Below, piece after piece: positions 209-64,000 of a DNA stretch of 64,000 bases. The notes beneath the pieces were generated by a model, which worked only from the letters and a program-made list of their open reading frames with translations, was not told the origin of the DNA and did not search any database. The stretch is taken from positions 321,036,001 through 321,100,000 of the forward strand of contig OZ024743.1 of assembly GCA_964016885.1 (NCBI GenBank). The letters run 5' to 3'. Origin of the DNA: Eledone cirrhosa (lineage: Eukaryota). A program made the position numbers and the translations under genes. Every line of letters begins with the position of its first letter. Position 1 is the first letter of the stretch.

Positions 209-1286
209 TTAATGACCCTTATGTTGTTTATTACATAACAGTGCTTTATTTCTTCCCTTTTGTGGGCAGAAATTGCTTTTATTTCTAACCAGTGATTCGT
301 CTTCAGTGTTGGTGTCGTTGTGGAAGAATTCCGTTAGTCGCAGCTTTCGGCAGTATTCCATGATGTCATCCTTCATTTCGGGGAAGTTTGGTTTACGTGG
401 TGTAGGTGTAAATTTCAGGCCCTTACTTAAAATGTTGATTTGTGTGTTGGTTAGAGGTGTCTTTGAGAGGTTGATTATTTTTGGTTTCTCCTGAGGGGGG
501 GCCATCGAGTATCCTGGTATTTCAGGCTTTTCCCTAAAAAAGGAATGTAATTTTGTGTGTGATTATATTTTGTTGGTCTGTTGCGTGTGGGTCTGTAGCT
601 TGTTGTTTCATGAGGGTGAATGTGATGGTGGGGGTGGTATGTGTTGTGGTTGTTGATGAGCAAGGGTTCTGTTGTTGGTTCATGTGGTCTGGGTGCGTTA
701 TTTCTGTGGTACAGAGTGTTGAGGTTGGGGGGTTGTCTTTTGTTGGATTGAGGGTGATGTCTGGTGTGGTTGTGGGTAAGTTCTGTTGTGATTTAAGTGC
801 ACTAAATCCCTTTCTATCAATCTCCCCTCTCCTACCTACCACATGAAGATATATGTATGTATATTGCTTCCACCCCCTCACTGACCAGCAGCTGGCCATC
901 TGGCCATTGCTAAATTTGACCTATATAAAATAACCCACACCCCCAAATAACTTCTCATTCACTACCAGAAAGGCACCCAGCAGTCAACGAGCTGCTACCA
1001 AGATGAAAACTACTGTGAAATCCCACAATGAATTTTATACTTGAATTTTCAAATCTCAAATTTTAACTCTTATTATTATAAATTTTTCTTAATATTAATC
1101 AACATTTGAAAAGATGGCTTTTGCAGACCCATCGAACCCGGTCATTTTTTATACCCTTTATTATTTCCTTACCTTATAAAATTATATGTTTTTTCACAAA
1201 AAAGTATTCTGTCTATTATATATTCCATGTGCCATTACCAACCTCAATTTTCTCTATAACCTTCGTTTTGTGTAGTAAATTACACT

Positions 1287-1290
<4 letters not shown>
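209..1290 (-). mobile_element. PLE fragment (Neptune-like N-terminal ORF piece) with inverted pseudo-LTR at about 810-1290
   Basis: ORF 209-505(-) reads IINLSKTPLT..LSKGLKFTPTP..YCRKLRL, typical of the region before PLE RT. The + strand segment carries an HHR-like motif and ends in (TA)n at 1291. Confidence 0.7.
1101..1150 (+). ncRNA. Degenerate type-I hammerhead (U3-A8 core)
   Basis: aacat TTGAAAA gatgg..ccatc GAAc ccgg TC atttt. Stem II gatgg/ccatc, palindromic ccgg stem III, GAAA mutated to GAAC, weak stem I. Confidence 0.55.
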
Positions 1291-1380
<90 letters not shown>

Positions 1381-3698: not shown

Positions 3699-3885
3699 AA
3701 TAAGAGAGACGGTTTTATTCGTACATTTTCATTCTATTAACTAATTCCATTATACGTATTTCAAAGATGTAAACTTGACGTATTATAAAAAAAAACAACT
3801 TAGAAAGCTTTATGAATATTAGGAAAATATGGTTCAGTGACTAATGACGCAAAATTTACCAAGCACGCCGTGTTTGGTATTGTAT

Positions 3886-4048
3886 AAGGTGGTAGATTGG
3901 CAGAGAGTCGTTAGAATCTCGGATAGAATGCTCTGCACTATTCCTTTCGGCTCTCTGCTCACTCAGTTCAAATCCCGCTGAGGACAAAATTACCTTTCAT
4001 CCTTTCCAAGTCTATAAAATACTACCTGTCTAGTACTGGAGTCGATTC
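3886..4048 (+). mobile_element. Degenerate tRNA-related SINE (octopus-type)
   Basis: ggtggtagattggcagagagtcgttag..gttcaaatcccgc..cctttcatcctt..gtactggagtcgat. B-box-like gttcaaatccc; similar to 5092-5278(-) and 20470-20551. Confidence 0.6.
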
Positions 4049-5091
4049 TTCCTCCATATCCCTTTCTCAATTCCATTCTGATTCTCTCTATCCTTCTCTG
4101 GAAGAGACCTGCTGTATTCAGACCTGGAGAGGGATGGGCTGTGTCAGGTTTTAAAATGCCCAAGAAACTCCGTATGACAATGTCAATATGGTGCCCATAC
4201 GACACCTTCACGAGATACGGTATCATGAATGCATATATATAAAACACCTGACATCTCACCAACCAATTTGTCCGAAATAATCACTACAACTACAACACCT
4301 TATGATGCACACAAACAAATCCTGCTACCAAAACATTAAGGATAACAGATGAAAGAACCCTACATACATACCTCACCACGTTAGCTACAACACTGTCACC
4401 AAGCATTAACTTTTGATCCCTCCTACACCAAGCTATCACTAGTATTTTACACCCCCTCCCTCCGATTACAAAACCTTAACATTGTGACACATTTATCATC
4501 AAAAATCAAATCAAAACCACTTTCACAAACCTCAAAACACACAATGGTACCAGTTATACAAGGGATTAAACATTCAACAACACACTAGACACTACTAGAA
4601 GTACATTCAACAAAATAATCATAGACTATCTCTTAAGACACAATAGAAAATACAATCCCTACATAAACAACAAAAATTAGATAATCTGAAAAGATATTGG
4701 AATGAGAGACAAATAGAAGGATTCAACAGCATACGCAAGAGACATTAAACCCAGTACTAAATAATTAGACAAAGATATAACAAAAAAGTAGGAATCGTAA
4801 AAATACAAAAAAACGGCAAACATTTGTAGCCAACATACACTCCCTTCCTCTCCCACAAAAGAGGACTAAAACACCATGTACAATATATAGCAACAAAAAC
4901 AAAATCAACAAAGGCCACATCATACCCCATAACATAACCCTCAAATAATATTCCCAGATTTTAGTACCAAGCCGACGTCCTTTTAAGGTTTATCTCGAGT
5001 GCCAACCATCAAAGAAAACACTCTGAAAAATACACACTCCGATGATATTTATCCTTTGCTTCTACAATTTACCTAAAAAGTAATAATCCTT

Positions 5092-15917: not shown

Positions 15918-17165
15918 TTAAAATGAAACGAAATTTCCTTTCTCACTCTTAGTACTTTTGTTACTTAAATATAAGTATGTATACGTACATACATATATGT
16001 ATACAGACGTACAGTAGTATGTGTATATATACATACATGCACACATATATATATGTACGTATAGATTTACAGAGCATTTATTATAATGCTCGGTTTGTTT
16101 GTAAACAAACATCCCGAATTAAGCCGTACAGTGTTTAGCAACCATCGTTGACCTTTTGCTCAACATTGACAAAGGAACGATGTACTAGTTTCAAGCTTAT
16201 TAGCTATCGTCAGCACCGTATACCTTCCTGCCAGATGATTGAACGTCTGAAAGTATATACTTTCCTTATGCATATTAACGGCTGAGCAGCCTAATTTGCA
16301 TATCGAGTGAGTTAATCGGCCGGACGCACCGAAAGCGATAAATGGAAAAAATGGAACGAAATTTTATTTTTCACTCTTAGTAGGGCTGTTACTTAAATAT
16401 AAGTATGTATACGTACATACATATATGTATACAGACGTACAGTAGTATGTATATATACACATACATGCACACATATATATCTGTACGTATGGAGTTACAG
16501 AGCATTTATTATAATGCTCGGTTTGTTGGTAAACAAACATCCCGAACTAAGCCGTACAGTGTTTAGCAACCATCGTTGCCCTTTTATTCAACACTGACAA
16601 AGGAACGATGTACTAGTTTCAAGCTTATTAGCTATCGTCAGCCCCGTGTAGCTTCCTGCCAGATGATTGAACGTCCGAAAGTATATACTTTCCTTATGCA
16701 TATTAACGGCTGAACAGCCTAATTTGCATATCGAGTGAGTTAATCAGCCGGGCGCACCGAAAACGAAAAATGGAAAAAATGAAACGAAATTTCATTCCTC
16801 ACTCTTAGTACAGCTGTTACTTAAATATAAGTATGTATACGTACATACATATATGTATACGTACAGTAGTATGTATATATATACATACATGCACACAATC
16901 ATCTGGCAGGAAGATATACTGTGCTGAGGATAGCTAATAAGCTTGAAACTAGTTCATCGTTCCTTTGACAGTGTTGAACAAAATGGTAACGATGGTTGCT
17001 AAACACTGTACGGCTTAATTTGGGATGTTTGTTTACAAACAAACCGAGCATTATAATAAATGCTCGGTAAATCCATACGTATATATATATGTGTGTGCAT
17101 GTATGTATATATATACATACTACTGTACGTCTGTATACATATATGTATGTACGTATACATACTTA
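15918..17165. repeat. HHR-containing array of about 428-bp units (about 2.3 copies) plus inverted arm, flanked by (TA)n
   Basis: Repeat starts at about 15920, 16350 and 16780; orientation flips at about 16897. HHRs at 16177-16219(-), 16604-16647(-) and 16921-16960(+). Related to 43766-45287. Confidence 0.85.
16177..16219 (-). ncRNA. Minimal type-I hammerhead
   Basis: acggtg CTGACGA tagct aata agctt GAAA ctag TA catcgt. Confidence 0.85.
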
Positions 17166-20595: not shown

Positions 20596-21341
20596 CAGCG
20601 ATGTAGAGCGATAAACTATTTGTTTGTTACATATATAATATAATAATACAAGGACGATTTGTTTGTTACATATATAATATAATAATACAAGGACGATTTG
20701 TTTGTTACATATATAATATAATAATACAAGGACGATTTGTTTGTTACATATATAATATAATAATACAAGGACGATTTGTTTGTTACATATATAATATAAT
20801 AATACAAGGACGATTTGTTTGTTACATATATAATATAATAATACAAGGACGATTTGTTTGTTACATATATAATATAATAATACAAGGACGATTTGTTTGT
20901 TACATATATAATATAATAATACAAGGACGATTTGTTTGTTACATATATAATATAATAATACAAGGACGATTTGTTTGTTACATATATAATATAATAATAC
21001 AAGGACGATTTGTTTGTTACATATATAATATAAGAATACAAGGACAATTTGTTAAGCCTTCATTACGTTTATTGTTTGGTGACGCGCGTTTCGCTATTGA
21101 TCAGATCAATTTTCGAGCTAAACCGACTCTGGAATAAAAAAAAAACTCGTCGGACCTCTGCTGGTCATTACAACAGTAGATTCCCGACGAGTTTTTCATT
21201 CCAGAGTCGGGCCAGATCAATACAGATCGAACTTTGAGCTGATCAACGGCGAAACGCGCGTCACCAAACAATAAACGCAATGAAGGCTTAACAAATCGTC
21301 ATTGTATTAATATTACACTCTGTCTAGCTCTACACCTCGCT
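20596..21341. mobile_element. Fold-back element (arms about 21025-21155 and 21185-21315) whose left arm includes the minisatellite
   Basis: tttgttaagccttcatt..gacgcgcgtttcg pairs with cgaaacgcgcgtc..aatgaaggcttaacaaa. GAAA cgcgcg TC resembles the 3' half of an HHR. Confidence 0.65.
20618..21046. repeat. 39-bp minisatellite, 11 copies
   Basis: atttgtttgttacatatataatataataatacaaggacg repeated with period 39. Confidence 0.97.
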
Positions 21342-29761: not shown

Positions 29762-29830
<69 letters not shown>

Positions 29831-29835
<5 letters not shown>

Positions 29836-32800
29836 AGTGTAATTTTCTACACAAAACGAAGGTTATAGAGAAAATTGAGGTTGGTAGTGGCACATGGAAT
29901 ATATAAGAGACAGAATACTTTTTTGTGAAAAAACATAATTTTATAAGGTAAGGAAATAATAAAGGGTATAAAAAATGTGAATTTTCTGGTTTTTAGATGT
30001 TTTTTCCAGAGGTGTCCCATTTGGTTTTTGATATGGAGCAATGTCGTTTGTTCTGTGTTGGTATTCATAAGTTTTTCGATGGAGTTGTATACGTTTTGAA
30101 CGTTTAAATAAATTTGGTTGTCAGTCGGTGTGGTGGTTTGGGGTATATCCTGTTTTTTTGTCAGAATGGTGAGTTTTCCATTTATCTCTTTTAGGATTTT
30201 CAGGATTTCCTCATTGATATTGGAGTTTGAAGTGGTGTTGTCTTGTTCCAGTGCCATTTTCCGGATTTGCGTAGGTTAGTATATATGAAAAGTGTAATTT
30301 TCTACACAAAACGAAGGTTATAGAGAAAATTGAGGTTGGTAGTGGCACATGGAATATATAAGAGACAGAATACTTTTTTGTGAAAAAACATAATTTTATA
30401 AGGTAAGGAAATAATAAAGGGTATAAAAAATGTGAATTTTCTGGTTTTTAGATGTTTTTTCCAGAGGTGTCCCATTTGGTTTTTGATATGGAGCAATGTC
30501 GTTTGTTCTGTGTTGGTATTCATAAGTTTTTCGATGGAGTTGTATACGTTTTGAACGTTTAAATAAATTTGGTTGTCAGTCGGTGTGGTGGTTTGGGGTA
30601 TATCCTGTTTTTTTGTCAGAATGGTGAGTTTTCCATTTATCTCTTTTAGGATTTTCAGGATTTCCTCATTGATATTGGAGTTTGAAGTGGTGTTGTCTTG
30701 TTCCAGTGCCATTTTCCGGATTTGCGTAGGTTAGTATATATGAAAAGTGTAATTTTCTACACAAAACGAAGGTTATAGAGAAAATTGAGGTTGGTAGTGG
30801 CACATGGAATATATAAGAGACAGAATACTTTTTTGTGAAAAAACATAATTTTATAAGGTAAGGAAATAATAAAGGGTATAAAAAATGTGAATTTTCTGGT
30901 TTTTAGATGTTTTTTCCAGAGGTGTCCCATTTGGTTTTTGATATGGAGCAATGTCGTTTGTTCTGTGTTGGTATTCATAAGTTTTTCGATGGAGTTGTAT
31001 ACGTTTTGAACGTTTAAATAAATTTGGTTGTCAGTCGGTGTGGTGGTTTGGGGTATATCCTGTTTTTTTGTCAGAATGGTGAGTTTTCCATTTATCTCTT
31101 TTAGGATTTTCAGGATTTCCTCATTGATATTGGAGTTTGAAGTGGTGTTGTCTTGTTCCAGTGCCATTTTCCGGATTTGCGTAGGTTAGTATATATGAAA
31201 AGTGTAATTTTCTACACAAAACGAAGGTTATAGAGAAAATTGAGGTTGGTAGTGGCACATGGAATATATAAGAGACAGAATACTTTTTTGTGAAAAAACA
31301 TAATTTTATAAGGTAAGGAAATAATAAAGGGTATAAAAAATGTGAATTTTCTGGTTTTTAGATGTTTTTTCCAGAGGTGTCCCATTTGGTTTTTGATATG
31401 GAGCAATGTCGTTTGTTCTGTGTTGGTATTCATAAGTTTTTCGATGGAGTTGTATACGTTTTGAACGTTTAAATAAATTTGGTTGTCAGTCGGTGTGGTG
31501 GTTTGGGGTATATCCTGTTTTTTTGTCAGAATGGTGAGTTTTCCATTTATCTCTTTTAGGATTTTCAGGATTTCCTCATTGATATTGGAGTTTGAAGTGG
31601 TGTTGTCTTGTTCCAGTGCCATTTTCCGGATTTGCGTAGGTTAGTATATATGAAAAGTGTAATTTTCTACACAAAACGAAGGTTATAGAGAAAATTGAGG
31701 TTGGTAGTGGCACATGGAATATATAAGAGACAGAATACTTTTTTGTGAAAAAACATAATTTTATAAGGTAAGGAAATAATAAAGGGTATAAAAAATGTGA
31801 ATTTTCTGGTTTTTAGATGTTTTTTCCAGAGGTGTCCCATTTGGTTTTTGATATGGAGCAATGTCGTTTGTTCTGTGTTGGTATTCATAAGTTTTTCGAT
31901 GGAGTTGTATACGTTTTGAACGTTTAAATAAATTTGGTTGTCAGTCGGTGTGGTGGTTTGGGGTATATCCTGTTTTTTTGTCAGAATGGTGAGTTTTCCA
32001 TTTATCTCTTTTAGGATTTTCAGGATTTCCTCATTGATATTGGAGTTTGAAGTGGTGTTGTCTTGTTCCAGTGCCATTTTCCGGATTTGCGTAGGTTAGT
32101 ATATATGAAAAGTGTAATTTTCTACACAAAACGAAGGTTATAGAGAAAATTGAGGTTGGTAGTGGCACATGGAATATATAAGAGACAGAATACTTTTTTG
32201 TGAAAAAACATAATTTTATAAGGTAAGGAAATAATAAAGGGTATAAAAAATGTGAATTTTCTGGTTTTTAGATGTTTTTTCCAGAGGTGTCCCATTTGGT
32301 TTTTGATATGGAGCAATGTCGTTTGTTCTGTGTTGGTATTCATAAGTTTTTCGATGGAGTTGTATACGTTTTGAACGTTTAAATAAATTTGGTTGTCAGT
32401 CGGTGTGGTGGTTTGGGGTATATCCTGTTTTTTTGTCAGAATGGTGAGTTTTCCATTTATCTCTTTTAGGATTTTCAGGATTTCCTCATTGATATTGGAG
32501 TTTGAAGTGGTGTTGTCTTGTTCCAGTGCCATTTTCCGGATTTGCGTAGGTTAGTATATATGAAAAGTGTAATTTTCTACACAAAACGAAGGTTATAGAG
32601 AAAATTGAGGTTGGTAGTGGCACATGGAATATATAAGAGACAGAATACTTTTTTGTGAAAAAACATAATTTTATAAGGTAAGGAAATAATAAAGGGTATA
32701 AAAAATGTGAATTTTCTGGTTTTTAGATGTTTTTTCCAGAGGTGTCCCATTTGGTTTTTGATATGGAGCAATGTCGTTTGTTCTGTGTTGGTATTCATAA

Positions 32801-35582
32801 GTTTTTCGATGGAGTTGTATACGTTTTGAACGTTTAAATAAATTTGGTTGTCAGTCGGTGTGGTGGTTTGGGGTATATCCTGTTTTTTTGTCAGAATGGT
32901 GAGTTTTCCATTTATCTCTTTTAGGATTTTCAGGATTTCCTCATTGATATTGGAGTTTGAAGTGGTGTTGTCTTGTTCCAGTGCCATTTTCCGGATTTGC
33001 GTAGGTTAGTATATATGAAAAGTGTAATTTTCTACACAAAACGAAGGTTATAGAGAAAATTGAGGTTGGTAGTGGCACATGGAATATATAAGAGACAGAA
33101 TACTTTTTTGTGAAAAAACATAATTTTATAAGGTAAGGAAATAATAAAGGGTATAAAAAATGTGAATTTTCTGGTTTTTAGATGTTTTTTCCAGAGGTGT
33201 CCCATTTGGTTTTTGATATGGAGCAATGTCGTTTGTTCTGTGTTGGTATTCATAAGTTTTTCGATGGAGTTGTATACGTTTTGAACGTTTAAATAAATTT
33301 GGTTGTCAGTCGGTGTGGTGGTTTGGGGTATATCCTGTTTTTGGGTATATCCTGTTTTTGGGGTATATCCTGGCACTGGAACAAGACAACACCACTTCAA
33401 ACTCCAATATCAATGAGGAAATCCTGAAAATCCTAAAAGAGATAAATGGAAAACTCACCATTCTGACAAAAAAACAGGATATACCCCAAACCACCACACC
33501 GACTGACAACCAAATTTATTTAAACGTTCAAAACGTATACAACTCCATCGAAAAACTTATGAATACCAACACAGAACAAACGACATTGCTCCATATCAAA
33601 AACCAAATGGGACACCTCTGGAAAAAACATCTAAAAACCAGAAAATTCACATTTTTTATACCCTTTATTATTTCCTTACCTTATAAAATTATGTTTTTTC
33701 ACAAAAAAGTATTCTGTCTCTTATATATTCCATGTGCCACTACCAACCTCAATTTTCTCTATAACCTTCGTTTTGTGTAGAAAATTACACTTTTCATATA
33801 TACTAACCTACGCAAATCCGGAAAATGGCACTGGAACAAGACAACACCACTTCAAACTCCAATATCAATGAGGAAATCCTGAAAATCCTAAAAGAGATAA
33901 ATGGAAAACTCACCATTCTGACAAAAAAACAGGATATACCCCAAACCACCACACCGACTGACAACCAAATTTATTTAAACGTTCAAAACGTATACAACTC
34001 CATCGAAAAACTTATGAATACCAACACAGAACAAACGACATTGCTCCATATCAAAAACCAAATGGGACACCTCTGGAAAAAACATCTAAAAACCAGAAAA
34101 TTCACATTTTTTATACCCTTTATTATTTCCTTACCTTATAAAATTATGTTTTTTCACAAAAAAGTATTCTGTCTCTTATATATTCCATGTGCCACTACCA
34201 ACCTCAATTTTCTCTATAACCTTCGTTTTGTGTAGAAAATTACACTTTTCATATATACTAACCTACGCAAATCCGGAAAATGGCACTGGAACAAGACAAC
34301 ACCACTTCAAACTCCAATATCAATGAGGAAATCCTGAAAATCCTAAAAGAGATAAATGGAAAACTCACCATTCTGACAAAAAAACAGGATATACCCCAAA
34401 CCACCACACCGACTGACAACCAAATTTATTTAAACGTTCAAAACGTATACAACTCCATCGAAAAACTTATGAATACCAACACAGAACAAACGACATTGCT
34501 CCATATCAAAAACCAAATGGGACACCTCTGGAAAAAACATCTAAAAACCAGAAAATTCACATTTTTTATACCCTTTATTATTTCCTTACCTTATAAAATT
34601 ATGTTTTTTCACAAAAAAGTATTCTGTCTCTTATATATTCCATGTGCCACTACCAACCTCAATTTTCTCTATAACCTTCGTTTTGTGTAGAAAATTACAC
34701 TTTTCATATATACTAACCTACGCAAATCCGGAAAATGGCACTGGAACAAGACAACACCACTTCAAACTCCAATATCAATGAGGAAATCCTGAAAATCCTA
34801 AAAGAGATAAATGGAAAACTCACCATTCTGACAAAAAAACAGGATATACCCCAAACCACCACACCGACTGACAACCAAATTTATTTAAACGTTCAAAACG
34901 TATACAACTCCATCGAAAAACTTATGAATACCAACACAGAACAAACGACATTGCTCCATATCAAAAACCAAATGGGACACCTCTGGAAAAAACATCTAAA
35001 AACCAGAAAATTCACATTTTTTATACCCTTTATTATTTCCTTACCTTATAAAATTATGTTTTTTCACAAAAAAGTATTCTGTCTCTTATATATTCCATGT
35101 GCCACTACCAACCTCAATTTTCTCTATAACCTTCGTTTTGTGTAGAAAATTACACTTTTCATATATACTAACCTACGCAAATCCGGAAAATGGCACTGGA
35201 ACAAGACAACACCACTTCAAACTCCAATATCAATGAGGAAATCCTGAAAATCCTAAAAGAGATAAATGGAAAACTCACCATTCTGACAAAAAAACAGGAT
35301 ATACCCCAAACCACCACACCGACTGACAACCAAATTTATTTAAACGTTCAAAACGTATACAACTCCATCGAAAAACTTATGAATACCAACACAGAACAAA
35401 CGACATTGCTCCATATCAAAAACCAAATGGGACACCTCTGGAAAAAACATCTAAAAACCAGAAAATTCACATTTTTTATACCCTTTATTATTTCCTTACC
35501 TTATAAAATTATGTTTTTTCACAAAAAAGTATTCTGTCTCTTATATATTCCATGTGCCACTACCAACCTCAATTTTCTCTAT
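29831..35582. repeat. Palindromic tandem array of a 455-bp PLE-derived unit (about 7.7 copies minus, then about 4.9 copies plus)
   Basis: Identical 136-aa ORFs every 455 bp; flip at about 33324-33371; both ends run into (TA)n; about 147 bp of the unit matches the pLTR end at 1144-1290. Confidence 0.97.
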
Positions 35583-36157
35583 ATATATATATATATATAT
35601 ATATGAGGGCTTAATTCGGTTTGTCTAAGGAAATTTCATTCCTTTGTCCCAACTTTAGAATTGACCGCCAAAACGGGGGTTACCTCTTTTTAGGAAAACC
35701 ACGTGTCTATAGCGAAAATTACTACTAGAAAACACACCCGTCGAGGCTATAGAACGCAAGACTTGTTGACGAAGTAAATCCTTTGTTTTTCGTCAAAGGC
35801 AATTAACTTGCAGACCCCTGCAAGCGGAATTTGTCGATCTCGGATTTACAGAAACCTGGCGTGGATGTTGTATGTTATCTGTGATGTATATTGTATGCTA
35901 TACGTTATGCGTTATGTGTTGCATTCGATGTCCACGCGATGGTCCAGGTCAGTCAAAATCTTTTCCTGAGTTCAGTTTTTTTCGTTGCTATGGCAATGCG
36001 GCTAGACTGTCGGTCGCTATATTTGATTTGCAAAGCTGTCTAAACGTATTGTTATAACTCTGGGGTATTATTCGCCATCGAGTGCTAAGCTGCATTCCGA
36101 ATCTGCATTCGTTAGCTTTGCCGCAGCCAAAAGCTTCGTTAATGCTGTACTAAAATT

Positions 36158-38645: not shown

Positions 38646-40133
<1,488 letters not shown>

Positions 40134-44197: not shown

Positions 44198-44270
<73 letters not shown>

Positions 44271-44708
44271 TGCTACTGTACGTCTGTAGACATATATGTA
44301 TGTACGTATACATACATACTTACATTTAAGTAAGTGCCATACTAAGAGTGAGAAATGAAATTTCGTTTTCATTTTTTTCAACTTATCGTTTTCGGTATGC
44401 CTGACCGATTTAACTCACTCAATATGCAAATTAGGCTGCTCAGCCGTTAATTTTCATAAGGAAAGTATATACTTTCGAACGTTCAACTATCTGGCAGATG
44501 GGTAAACGGTGCTGATGATAGCTAACAAGCTTGAAACTAGTACATCGTTCCTGTGTCAGTGTTGAACAAAAAGGTGACGTGGTTGCCTTAACACCGTATG
44601 GCATAAATTCAGGCTGTTCGATTTGTTGACAAACAAACGAACAAAGCAGGCGTTATAATAAACGTCGGCTAAACTGATGCGTGCATATATGTATGTGTAC
44701 CTGTATGC

Positions 44709-44755
<47 letters not shown>

Positions 44756-45193
44756 TGCTACTGTACGTCTGTAGACATATATGTATGTACGTATACATAC
44801 ATACTTTCATTTAAGTAAGTGCCATACTAAGAGTGAGAAATGAAATTTCGTTTTCATTTTTTTCAACTTATCGTTTTCGGTATGCCTGACCGATTTAACT
44901 CACTCAATATGCAAATTAGGCTACTCAGCCGTTAATTTTCATAAGGAAAGTATATACTTTCGAACGTTCAACTATCTGGCAGATGGGTAAACGGTGCTGA
45001 TGATAGCTAACAAGCTTGAAACTAGTACATCGTTCCTGTGTCAGTGTTGAACAAAAAGGTGACGTGGTTGCCTTAACACCGTATGGCATAAATTCAGGCT
45101 GTTCGATTTGTTGACAAACAAACGAACAAAGCAGGCGTTATAATAAACGTCGGCTAAACTGATGCGTGCATATATGTATGTGTACCTGTATGC

Positions 45194-45234
<41 letters not shown>

Positions 45235-45287
45235 TGCTACTGTACGTCTGTAGACATATATGTATGTACGTATACATACATACTTAT
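43766..45287. repeat. HHR-containing 485-bp tandem array with inverted head, flanked by (TA)n
   Basis: HHRs at 44086-44130(-), 44505-44549(+) and 44990-45034(+); flip at about 44165 after a duplicated cgtttacccatctgccagatg. Confidence 0.9.
44505..44549 (+). ncRNA. Minimal type-I hammerhead
   Basis: aacggtg CTGATGA tagct aaca agctt GAAA ctag TA catcgtt. Confidence 0.9.
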
Positions 45288-45358
45288 ATTTATATATATA
45301 TATATATATGTGTATATATATTTATATATATATATAGATATATATATGTATATATATT

Positions 45359-45569: not shown

Positions 45570-45798
45570 GTGAAATTTTTTTTACAAAATGAAAAATAAC
45601 TGAGGTGTCCTACACGAGTGAAAGTATAAAGAAAAAGAGATGAAATCGAAAATGCAACTGAAGTGTTATTTTTTTTAAAAATATATATATTTATTTGGTT
45701 CCTTTACCGGTTTCGCAGTTCTTCTGCTTTTCACAAGGTGAGTTGAGATGGAGGGTCTGTGGTTTTTAAACCCCAGACCCTCCATCTCAACTCACCTT
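45566..45798 (-). mobile_element. Short pLTR remnant with HHR-like motif, ending in a perfect hairpin
   Basis: Reverse strand: cctt GTGAAAA gcag aagaa ctgc GAAA ccgg TA aagg; 25-bp stem hairpin at 45736-45798. Confidence 0.6.
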
Positions 45799-61435: not shown

Positions 61436-61496
<61 letters not shown>

Positions 61497-61499
<3 letters not shown>

Positions 61500-64000
61500 T
61501 GGAATAAATGCTCTGAAATAGCGATATATATGTGAATATAGACATAGAATATTCGAAAATATTCTGTATGTTTATAATAAACATTTTGAAGACCTAATCG
61601 CTATAGAATAGAATACGTCACGTATTACAATTAGATTCTCGATAAAAGCAAGGGAAGTAATCTACGCGTTTCATTCTTGTTAGAAATCATCAGGACTACA
61701 TATCCAGTGCTTTTATCGAGAATGACACAGCTAGAGACTTATAGAATACTTAGCTGTGTACAGGAACTGGTTTGAAAGAGCGGTTGCCGGTCCGGCAGAA
61801 ATTAGAAATTGGAATAAATGCTCTGAAATAGCGGTATATATGTGAATATAGACATAGAATATTCGAAAATATTCTGTATGTTTATAATAAACATTTTGAA
61901 GACCTAATCGCTATAGAATAGAATACGTCACGTATTACAATTAGATTCTCGATAAAAGCAAGGGAAGTAATCTACGCGTTTCATTCTTGTTAGAAATCAT
62001 CAGGACTACATATCCAGTGCTTTTATCGAGAATGACACAGCTAGAGACTTATAGAATACTTAGCTGTGTACAGGAACTGGTTTGAAAGAGCGGTTGCCGG
62101 TCCGGCAGAAATTAGAAATTGGAATAAATGCTCTGAAATAGCGATATATATGTGAATATAGACATAGAATATTCGAAAATATTCTGTATGTTTATAATAA
62201 ACATTTTGAAGACCTAATCGCTATAGAATAGAATACGTCACGTATTACAATTAGATTCTCGATAAAAGCAAGGGAAGTAATCTACGCGTTTCATTCTTGT
62301 TAGAAATCATCAGGACTACATATCCAGTGCTTTTATCGAGAATGACACAGCTAGAGACTTATAGAATACTTAGCTGTGTACAGGAACTGGTTTGAAAGAG
62401 CGGTTGCCGGTCCGGCAGAAATTAGAAATTGGAATAAATGCTCTGAAATAGCGATATATATGTGAATATAGACATAGAATATTCGAAAATATTCTGTATG
62501 TTTATAATAAACATTTTGAAGACCTAATCGCTATAGAATAGAATACGTCACGTATTACAATTAGATTCTCGATAAAAGCAAGGGAAGTAATCTACGCGTT
62601 TCATTCTTGTTAGAAATCATCAGGACTACATATCCAGTGCTTTTATCGAGAATGACACAGCTAGAGACTTATAGAATACTTAGCTGTGTACAGGAACTGG
62701 TTTGAAAGAGCGGTTGCCGGTCCGGCAGAAATTAGAAATTGGAATAAATGCTCTGAAATAGCGATATATATGTGAATATAGACATAGAATATTCGAAAAT
62801 ATTCTGTATGTTTATAATAAACATTTTGAAGACCTAATCGCTATAGAATAGAATACGTCACGTATTACAATTAGATTCTCGATAAAAGCAAGGGAAGTAA
62901 TCTACGCGTTTCATTCTTGTTAGAAATCATCAGGACTACATATCCAGTGCTTTTATCGAGAATGACACAGCTAGAGACTTATAGAATACTTAGCTGTGTA
63001 CAGGAACTGGTTTGAAAGAGCGGTTGCCGGTCCGGCAGAAATTAGAAATTGGAATATTTTCGAATATTCTATGTCTATATTCACATATATATCGCTATTT
63101 CAGAGCATTTATTCCAATTTCTAATTTCTGCCGGACCGGCAACCGCTCTTTCAAACCAGTTCCTGTACACAGCTAAGTATTCTATAAGTCTCTAGCTGTG
63201 TCATTCTCGATAAAAGCACTGGATATGTAGTCCTGATGATTTCTAACAAGAATGAAACGCGTAGATTACTTCCCTTGCTTTTATCGAGAATCTAATTGTA
63301 ATACGTGACGTATTCTATTCTATAGCGATTAGGTCTTCAAAATGTTTATTATAAACATACAGAATATTTTCGAATATTCTATGTCTATATTCACATATAT
63401 ATCGCTATTTCAGAGCATTTATTCCAATTTCTAATTTCTGCCGGACCGGCAACCGCTCTTTCAAACCAGTTCCTGTACACAGCTAAGTATTCTATAAGTC
63501 TCTAGCTGTGTCATTCTCGATAAAAGCACTGGATATGTAGTCCTGATGATTTCTAACAAGAATGAAACGCGTAGATTACTTCCCTTGCTTTTATCGAGAA
63601 TCTAATTGTAATACGTGACGTATTCTATTCTATAGCGATTAGGTCTTCAAAATGTTTATTATAAACATACAGAATATTTTCGAATATTCTATGTCTATAT
63701 TCACATATATATCGCTATTTCAGAGCATTTATTCCAATTTCTAATTTCTGCCGGACCGGCAACCGCTCTTTCAAACCAGTTCCTGTACACAGCTAAGTAT
63801 TCTATAAGTCTCTAGCTGTGTCATTCTCGATAAAAGCACTGGATATGTAGTCCTGATGATTTCTAACAAGAATGAAACGCGTAGATTACTTCCCTTGCTT
63901 TTATCGAGAATCTAATTGTAATACGTGACGTATTCTATTCTATAGCGATTAGGTCTTCAAAATGTTTATTATAAACATACAGAATATTTTCGAATATTCT
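61497..64000. repeat. Palindromic tandem array of a 310-bp hammerhead-containing unit (retrozyme-like): 5 copies, then about 3 inverted copies running off the window
   Basis: ggaataaatg at 61501, 61811, 62121, 62431 and 62741; flip at about 63052; starts at a (TA)n tract. Confidence 0.97.
63227..63269 (+). ncRNA. Minimal type-I hammerhead (also 63537 and 63847 on +; 61657, 61967, 62277, 62587 and 62897 on -)
   Basis: gtagtc CTGATGA t ttct aaca agaa t GAAA cgcg TA gattac; stem I extended by ttctcgataaaagca/tgcttttatcgagaa (63204-63290). Confidence 0.9.

Follow-up and report, generated by a model that had tools for sequence, protein, structure and literature searches.

Within a 64,000-nt window of the Eledone cirrhosa genome (GCA_964016885.1, contig OZ024743.1, positions 321,036,001 to 321,100,000, forward strand), the first 455 nt of a Penelope-like element (PLE), counted from a predicted hammerhead ribozyme cut site, are repeated 12.6 times in two head-to-head arms. 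The joint linking nt 455 of one unit to nt 1 of the next (455/1 joint) has 13 exact matches in the 3.0-Gb genome, every one of them within this array. We judge, with a probability of roughly 0.6, that the array is the product of rolling-circle reverse transcription on a ligated, sub-genomic nt 1–455 RNA circle lacking a ribozyme. The array bears on the role of the hammerhead in PLEs and on the origin of their tandem and inverted structures. An earlier note on this DNA had proposed that a ribozyme-processed PLE RNA was circularised, or repeatedly re-entered by template jumping, and became a new satellite in one step; our analysis supports this interpretation in part, stopping short of the circle and of the satellite.

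The repetition is exact. Tandem Repeats Finder (TRF) reports two 455-bp arrays, both at 100% matches (Table 1), and comparison of 3,518 nt of the left arm and 2,210 nt of the right arm with the unit reveals no mismatch, so the identical, roughly 12.6-fold repetition described earlier stands. Read in reverse complement, the left arm has the sequence of the right, and to that extent the array is palindromic, as the earlier note had called it; a true mirror palindrome is excluded by the unequal lengths and different ends of the arms and by the 17-nt stutter that connects them. The shorter right arm is nested within the longer left arm. Both outer ends pass into (TA)n, beyond which lie different unique sequences. 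At all 13 joints (eight left, five right) the junction is identical and blunt, with a 1-nt ambiguity and no bases added or lost. The unit contains an ATG at nt 175. A dimer of it has no CUGANGA or UUGANAA core on either strand, and an Rfam scan of the unit returns no hammerhead, in agreement with the view that the repeated segment lacks one. Among the 150 of 275 Rfam matches listed for the whole window, nearly all are low-complexity matches to microRNA models below threshold. The array is likely a single recent insertion, as read from the assembly, in which its copy number may be off.

The parent element proved to be present in many copies. A search of the genome with unit nt 160–450 gave 159 candidates, of which 40 were scored; outside the array there are 29, and we examined 19 of them. 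In each of the 19, the whole unit occurs in one uninterrupted stretch at 98.9–100% identity, preceded by a hammerhead-like motif that ends in GGTC (18 copies) or GATC (one copy), and the native open reading frame (ORF) continues past nt 455. The unit is exactly parent nt 1–455 after the predicted cut GTC in all of them, which bears out both the existence of a parent PLE and the non-native character of the junction, and rules out a joint native to the parent. Two of the three findings that would, by the earlier note, have spoken against its idea are absent. The native cut-site sequence, by comparison, has 1,759 exact matches in the genome. At positions 90 and 344 the unit has private variants that 18 of the 19 outside copies lack; it is 100% identical to one intact copy alone, at G000:C28:86.04 Mb (L001/L031), which is likely the donor of the array or a sibling of the donor. 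Logan contigs of four runs (X1–X4) over 33325–33780 carry the common alleles at both private positions, with X1 showing the native parent order; they contain neither the 455/1 joint nor the central joint, and as such contigs show presence only, they weigh neither way.

The period of the parent is 4,857 nt, and its two ORFs, of 421 and 758 amino acids, overlap. ORF2 matches RVT_1 (E 4.4e-7); Pfam gives nothing else in ORF2, leaving GIY-YIG unreported, and no family for ORF1. The Atlas neighbours of ORF2 stand at 0.98, with GIY-YIG in 50–58% of members, and the ORF2 sequence itself can be read as a CX4CX2C linker at residue 625 followed by an IY..YIG motif. A CX2-5CxxC linker between the reverse transcriptase (RT) and the C-terminal endonuclease, together with a microsatellite target, is described as the criterion for Neptune, and applies also to Nematis (PMC8557442). 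With its CX4CX2C linker and (TA)n flanks, the parent is probably a PLE of the Neptune or Nematis type, likely Neptune. Both ORFs lie at L031:2678-6189 (−), beside a 3′ region that spans about 1.2 kb and contains long microsatellites, and this organization is intact in most copies examined. The family is therefore very young.

Directly before nt 1, the family carries a motif with the order U3–A8 core, 5-bp helix II, GAAA, palindromic helix III and GUC, and self-cleavage by this motif is predicted. In PLE hammerheads, U3–A8 covariation has been reported, as has a Drosophila virilis hammerhead that combines a 2-bp helix I with a palindromic helix III (PMC4209133). The pseudo-long terminal repeat (pLTR) of a same-family copy near the start of the window shows the same arrangement (Table 1). 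Its 3′ part is 96.8% identical to unit nt 1–152, with three substitutions and one 2-nt indel. The local alignment of the unit starts at 1143, the C of GTC, which is common to the joint as a 1-nt microhomology; the claim that homology begins within 1 nt of the cut is thus upheld. This window copy of the hammerhead (core from 1106, GTC at 1141–1143) reads GAACC, versus GAAAC in the 19 parent copies, and is probably inactive through this core substitution. A second abundant family (L117, L040, L137, L156, L188; in the window at about 45700–45790 (−)) has a U3–A8 hammerhead with the same palindromic helix III. Its helices I and II are different, helix I having 4 bp, and its cut site is unlike an initiator (Inr) element. 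This second family also terminates at two sites in (TA)n.

If the motif cuts in vivo, copies made from the resulting RNA would end at nt 1. We counted breakpoints by collecting genome matches of a 29–30-nt probe with an unexpected preceding base and sorting them into breaks and substitutions. At nt 1, the 43 matches comprise 32 breaks and 11 substitutions; five pairs are the two arms of one insertion, leaving 27 events. Control sites gave 4 breaks in 17 matches at −43, 3 in 13 at +51, 14 in 25 at −55, 1 in 18 at −4 and 1 in 8 at −40, this last site having its first four letters in common with nt 1 and being read by eye. Pooled, 32/43 at nt 1 compares with 23/81 at the controls (Fisher p 1.3e-6, for matches that are not fully independent). 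A second class of matches at nt 1 has 21 members, 13 in the array and 8 outside, with three breaks. Many of the nt-1 cases are small palindromes, both arms of which stop at or a few bases from nt 1, and one (L079) is a full-length copy starting at nt 1. In the second family, the first 30 of 126 matches at its own cut contain 19 breaks and the first 30 of 145 at one control contain 10 (p 0.04), an excess that is weaker and in the same direction. Because family copies break preferentially at nt 1, the template RNAs likely start there.

Several individual joints at nt 1 add detail. Single nt-1 joints elsewhere in the genome are ragged, with a 9-nt insert (L061/L062), a 21-nt loss (L073) or a short duplication (L154). 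The insert at L061/L062 (G000:C1:98.726 Mb) is G-rich, foreign to the element and placed exactly at the predicted cut in both arms; none of the other copies among the 43 matches carries it. At L219/L220 (G000:C1:148.456 Mb) and L224, as at L154, a short duplication links nt 1 to about nt 17–21 of the same element; the two arms of L219/L220 have this joint in common.

The outer ends of the array point to the enzyme family that wrote it. We sampled 40 loci along contig C1, among the first 100 listed of the 1,759 cut-site matches, and found two head-to-head arms at 22 and single arms at 18. One outer end lies at nt 103–113 and the other at nt 150–152 in 22 of 22 two-arm loci, and the single arms end at 110–113 or 152. 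The array, ending at nt 152 on one side and nt 112–113 on the other, shows the family's two usual ends. Two adjacent internal RT start sites are reported to yield the PLE tail in vitro (PMC11167929), and by analogy the ends of the array and of the family match these two sites. At no fewer than five loci (L278, L283, L301, L303 and L306, judged by eye) neither arm contains the other, so the arms are generally templated separately; for the family as a whole, this rules out a general rule by which one arm is a fold-back copy of its partner. Fold-back may have occurred in the 455-bp array itself, where the short arm is nested in the long one. At one further locus (L037:2536-7577), two internal deletions (element 3768–3811 and 3947–4640) are common to both arms; they are not covered by the upstream pLTR stretch and at a glance are not GT–AG.

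On the basis of these observations, we propose that the hammerhead would cut the element transcript after GUC and leave a 5′-OH at nt 1, as the anatomy of the motif and the family's pile-up of breakpoints suggest. The RNA would also be broken after nt 454/455 and its ends, whose joint is visible in the array, would be ligated, probably by an RtcB-type ligase. RtcB could join a 5′-OH to an unrelated cyclic-phosphate end. It circularises hammerhead-cut retrozyme monomers in vitro (PMC7229834). The RT/GIY-YIG protein would nick (TA)n and prime from both target ends at nt 152 and 112–113, the ends being those seen in the array and the priming being modelled on PMC11167929. Each cDNA would then circle the template, passing the joint as often as it is counted in the respective arm, and the two cDNA ends would be joined after the observed 17-nt stutter. 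Arms with only one joint each would together miss nt 153–175, so that more-than-unit copying took place at insertion, with at least one arm crossing the joint twice. The circle is the simplest explanation because the joint is exactly repeated in two separately primed arms.

Other sources of the joint fit the sequence poorly. Back-splicing is ruled out: GGTC precedes and TTTC follows the joint on the sense strand, and by eye no AG/GT pair is found on either strand, even allowing a 1-nt shift. A jump at nt 455 driven by microhomology is likewise ruled out, as at most 1 nt is usable. A cryptic hammerhead cut at the unit end was rejected, the GAAA-AU-UC look-alike there ending the RNA at 453, two bases short.

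A number of points weigh against the rolling-circle reading. Nucleotide 455 itself is unmarked, apart from the look-alike that would cut at 453. Rfam finds no hammerhead at 1040–1200, even at E 10; helix I of the family motif has two contiguous pairs only; and unconstrained folding of the monomer or dimer does not give the active form, the core pairing with helix II instead. The cut site also resembles the insect Inr consensus, TCA+1KTY. At the −55 control, a palindromic AT stretch, the break rate is such that the excess at nt 1 over this site is only about two-fold, and hot spots therefore arise without a ribozyme. The single joints from nt 1 to internal positions (L154, L219, L224) show that jumping is possible. 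The array is one event: a sub-genomic tandem occurs at 0 of the 40 sampled loci, and a second multi-copy array with this start, which the earlier note had suggested looking for with different ends, is absent from those loci and from the 43 matches and 8 outside matches (base −1 or −2 differing), although this search did not take in joints with non-G-T-C in front of them or with a start a few bases away from nt 1. Finally, PMC11167929, which describes the one in vitro system, reports that hammerhead cleavage is dispensable there and notes, for an anole element, an absence of RNA-seq ends at the cut; these results weigh against generalising from the array.

The alternative that survives best, although we regard it as unlikely, is that the RT jumped repeatedly from end to end of linear nt 1–455 RNA, within the same or between sister molecules, and that no circle was involved. 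Nucleotide 1 is indeed a stopping point for cDNAs of the family, single nt-1 joints to other positions exist (L073, L154, L219, L224), and RT can cross RNA ends that are open but juxtaposed (PMC4897178). The G-rich insert of L061/L062 is what untemplated addition before a jump would be expected to leave; its presence in the same form in both arms is, however, a better fit to a covalent template or donor than to two jumps. Jumping would also have to produce 13 of 13 identical joints, with no base added or lost, in two separately primed arms and with no usable microhomology at 455, from a linear RNA in whose predicted fold neither the first 40 nor the last 20 nt are paired, so that the ends are not clamped together.

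Somewhat less probable is a short more-than-unit retrocopy that was later expanded at the DNA level by unequal exchange or slippage, so that copy number would say little about the RT. Unequal crossover is the accepted route for such arrays (bioRxiv 10.64898/2026.07.22.740005), and zero divergence does not date the units relative to each other. Even so, at least two passes of the joint are still needed at insertion, and DNA expansion alone is insufficient for the unit because more-than-unit copying is needed at that stage. Both arms would, moreover, have to grow in a time too short for a single mutation, and in the 310-bp array of the same window the two variants are each limited to one unit.

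An equally improbable possibility is that nt 1 is a transcription start, with the Inr-like TCATTT, and not a ribozyme cut, the array deriving from that RNA end by jumping or by decapping and ligation; this explanation overlaps the others. The site fits the insect Inr consensus, helix I of the hammerhead is weak, and Rfam does not match the motif. Inr-like motifs are reported in rotifer pLTRs (PMC3846280). Against this, a complete U3–A8 core, helix II and palindromic helix III lie exactly before the site, in the PLE variant of PMC4209133, and the second family combines the core with other helices and a non-Inr site and yet has excess breaks there. A G directly precedes nt 1 in only 1 of 32 breaks, giving no sign of a cap G, and no TATA is found near −30.

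We consider it very unlikely that the template came from an older donor array, missing from the assembly, in the form of a multimeric transcript or a DNA circle. The assembly may be incomplete or single-haplotype, and features common to both arms (L061/L062, L219/L220) could come from donor copies; but the joint occurs at no other locus, both private variants of the unit are found in an intact full-length copy, a DNA circle would leave the ends at the two RT start sites unexplained, and the origin of the donor would raise the same question. An assembly or library artefact (a chimeric palindromic read, or a collapsed or inflated repeat) is the least probable explanation, for although the joint is known from the assembly alone and the units are perfectly identical, the unequal, non-mirror arms with distinct unique flanks, the two family-specific outer ends and the templated central stutter argue against it.

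Comparison with known systems sets the rolling-circle reading in context. Non-LTR retrozymes carry a type I hammerhead in their units, are expressed as RNA monomers in linear and circular form, regenerate circles by double self-cleavage and are thought to spread via small circular RNAs, a rolling-circle route and PLE enzymes (PMC7229834; bioRxiv 10.64898/2026.07.22.740005). Like them, the array consists of a short unit in head-to-tail tandem, and nt 1–152 relate this unit to a PLE pLTR. In contrast to retrozymes, its 455-bp unit has no hammerhead, contains the start of ORF1 and occupies a single locus, and its joint is missing in the donor and so marks every pass. PLE insertions described as tandem or inverted, with a 30–40 bp tail (PMC8557442, PMC11167929), share with the array or its parent the head-to-head arms, outer ends about 40 nt apart, the (TA)n target, and an RT with CX4CX2C linker and GIY-YIG-type endonuclease, and they have a pLTR hammerhead where this family has a predicted one; here, however, what is repeated is a 455-nt segment of the 4,857-nt element and not the whole element or pLTR. 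Canonical PLEs are described with one ORF, whereas this parent has two.

Circular templates have been suggested before. In the model of Cervera and De la Peña (2014, PMC4209133), circles formed by ligation of PLE RNA after hammerhead cutting serve as templates for reverse transcription beyond one unit length; as presented there, the model is tentative, concerns full-length RNA and is given without in vivo evidence, and the array adds a sub-genomic joint and a genome-wide excess of breaks as genomic evidence. CircRNA-derived pseudogenes (Dong et al. 2016, PMC4897178) are also retrocopies with a non-colinear joint absent from the parent. Theirs are back-splice joints in mammalian mRNAs, with a mobilising enzyme described as unknown, whereas the joint here is not GT–AG, begins at a predicted ribozyme site and is passed 13 times, and the enzyme family can be told from the ends of the arms. 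Our literature search, with supplementary files outside its scope, found no ribozyme-less sub-genomic PLE array. A satellite family is recognized by long or multi-locus arrays; with 13 joints at one 5.7-kb locus, the array has not spread, and the description of it as a new satellite goes too far.

In native tandems the joint is donor sequence, so they cannot tell a circle apart from read-through of an uncut transcript. The array offers instead a joint that no donor carries, repeated 13 times in two separately primed arms, together with a family-wide excess of copies ending at the cut, and for a direct test of circle versus linear template it provides a defined substrate of 455 nt and an intact donor copy that matches it. 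It suggests a route by which PLE enzymes can create tandem arrays at insertion. On a wider reading, which we hold tentatively and at a little under even odds, PLE RNAs would be cut by their hammerheads in vivo and ligated into circles, and a dimeric RT would roll one circle from both target ends. Any fragment keeping the 5′-OH end and both priming sites could then form a ribozyme-less circle and yield a tandem array in one step; the array would be a marked record of a route that also seeds retrozymes and minisatellites.

Table 1 Features of the window (positions counted from its first nucleotide)
Feature	Position	Strand	Description
Predicted minimal type I hammerhead	1106..1143	+	In same-family pLTR; U3–A8 core, 5-bp helix II, palindromic helix III, GTC
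pLTR 3′ part	1144..1297	+	Homologous to unit nt 1–152; ends in (AT)n
(TA)n target tract, left flank	29764..29831	.	From sequence and TRF
Left arm	29825..33342	-	7.7 exact copies; unit nt 275 (inner) to nt 152 (outer, family's long end); 8 joints
Central joint	33322..33372	.	17-nt unit segment (about nt 275–292) x2.9, then 2-nt microhomology to right arm; templated stutter
Right arm	33371..35583	+	4.9 exact copies; unit nt 176 (inner) to nt 112–113 (outer, family's short end); 5 joints
One full unit	33651..34105	+	Parent nt 1–455 after predicted hammerhead cut
Non-native 455/1 joint	33650..33651	+	One of 13; blunt, no GT–AG
Parent ORF1 start crossing the joint	33825..34235	+	93 codons of ORF1 running into pLTR; 136-aa chimeric frame in each unit, no function claimed
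(TA)n target tract, right flank	35580..35604	.
Comparator 310-bp head-to-head array	61496..64000	.	Hammerhead in every unit; 5.0 + 11.1 copies; runs past the window

The 310-bp array at the end of the window (also L047:997-6003) lies between (TA)n tracts, has the same two-arm layout as the 455-bp array and carries one private variant per arm. The hammerhead in its unit gives a weak Rfam match to HH9 (E 0.013), and the array looks like a retrozyme-type insertion. The PLE enzymes of this genome thus appear to write such arrays from retrozyme-type templates as well. Tandems of 428-bp and 485-bp units (2.3 and 2.2 copies, at 15920–16897 and 44224–45292) contain a hammerhead-like core, are each adjoined by an oppositely oriented copy and are probably further retrozyme-type insertions. 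An inverted insertion that bears a hammerhead-like motif has, within one of its arms (20618–21053), a 39-bp unit repeated 11.2 times (99%). This unit, part of which is TA-rich, belongs to the tail region of the pLTR, and repeated re-priming or slippage could have produced the run. A long, near-perfect inverted repeat at 39617–39782, which draws hairpin-type microRNA-model matches below threshold, is probably an inverted PLE fragment or resembles a miniature inverted-repeat transposable element.

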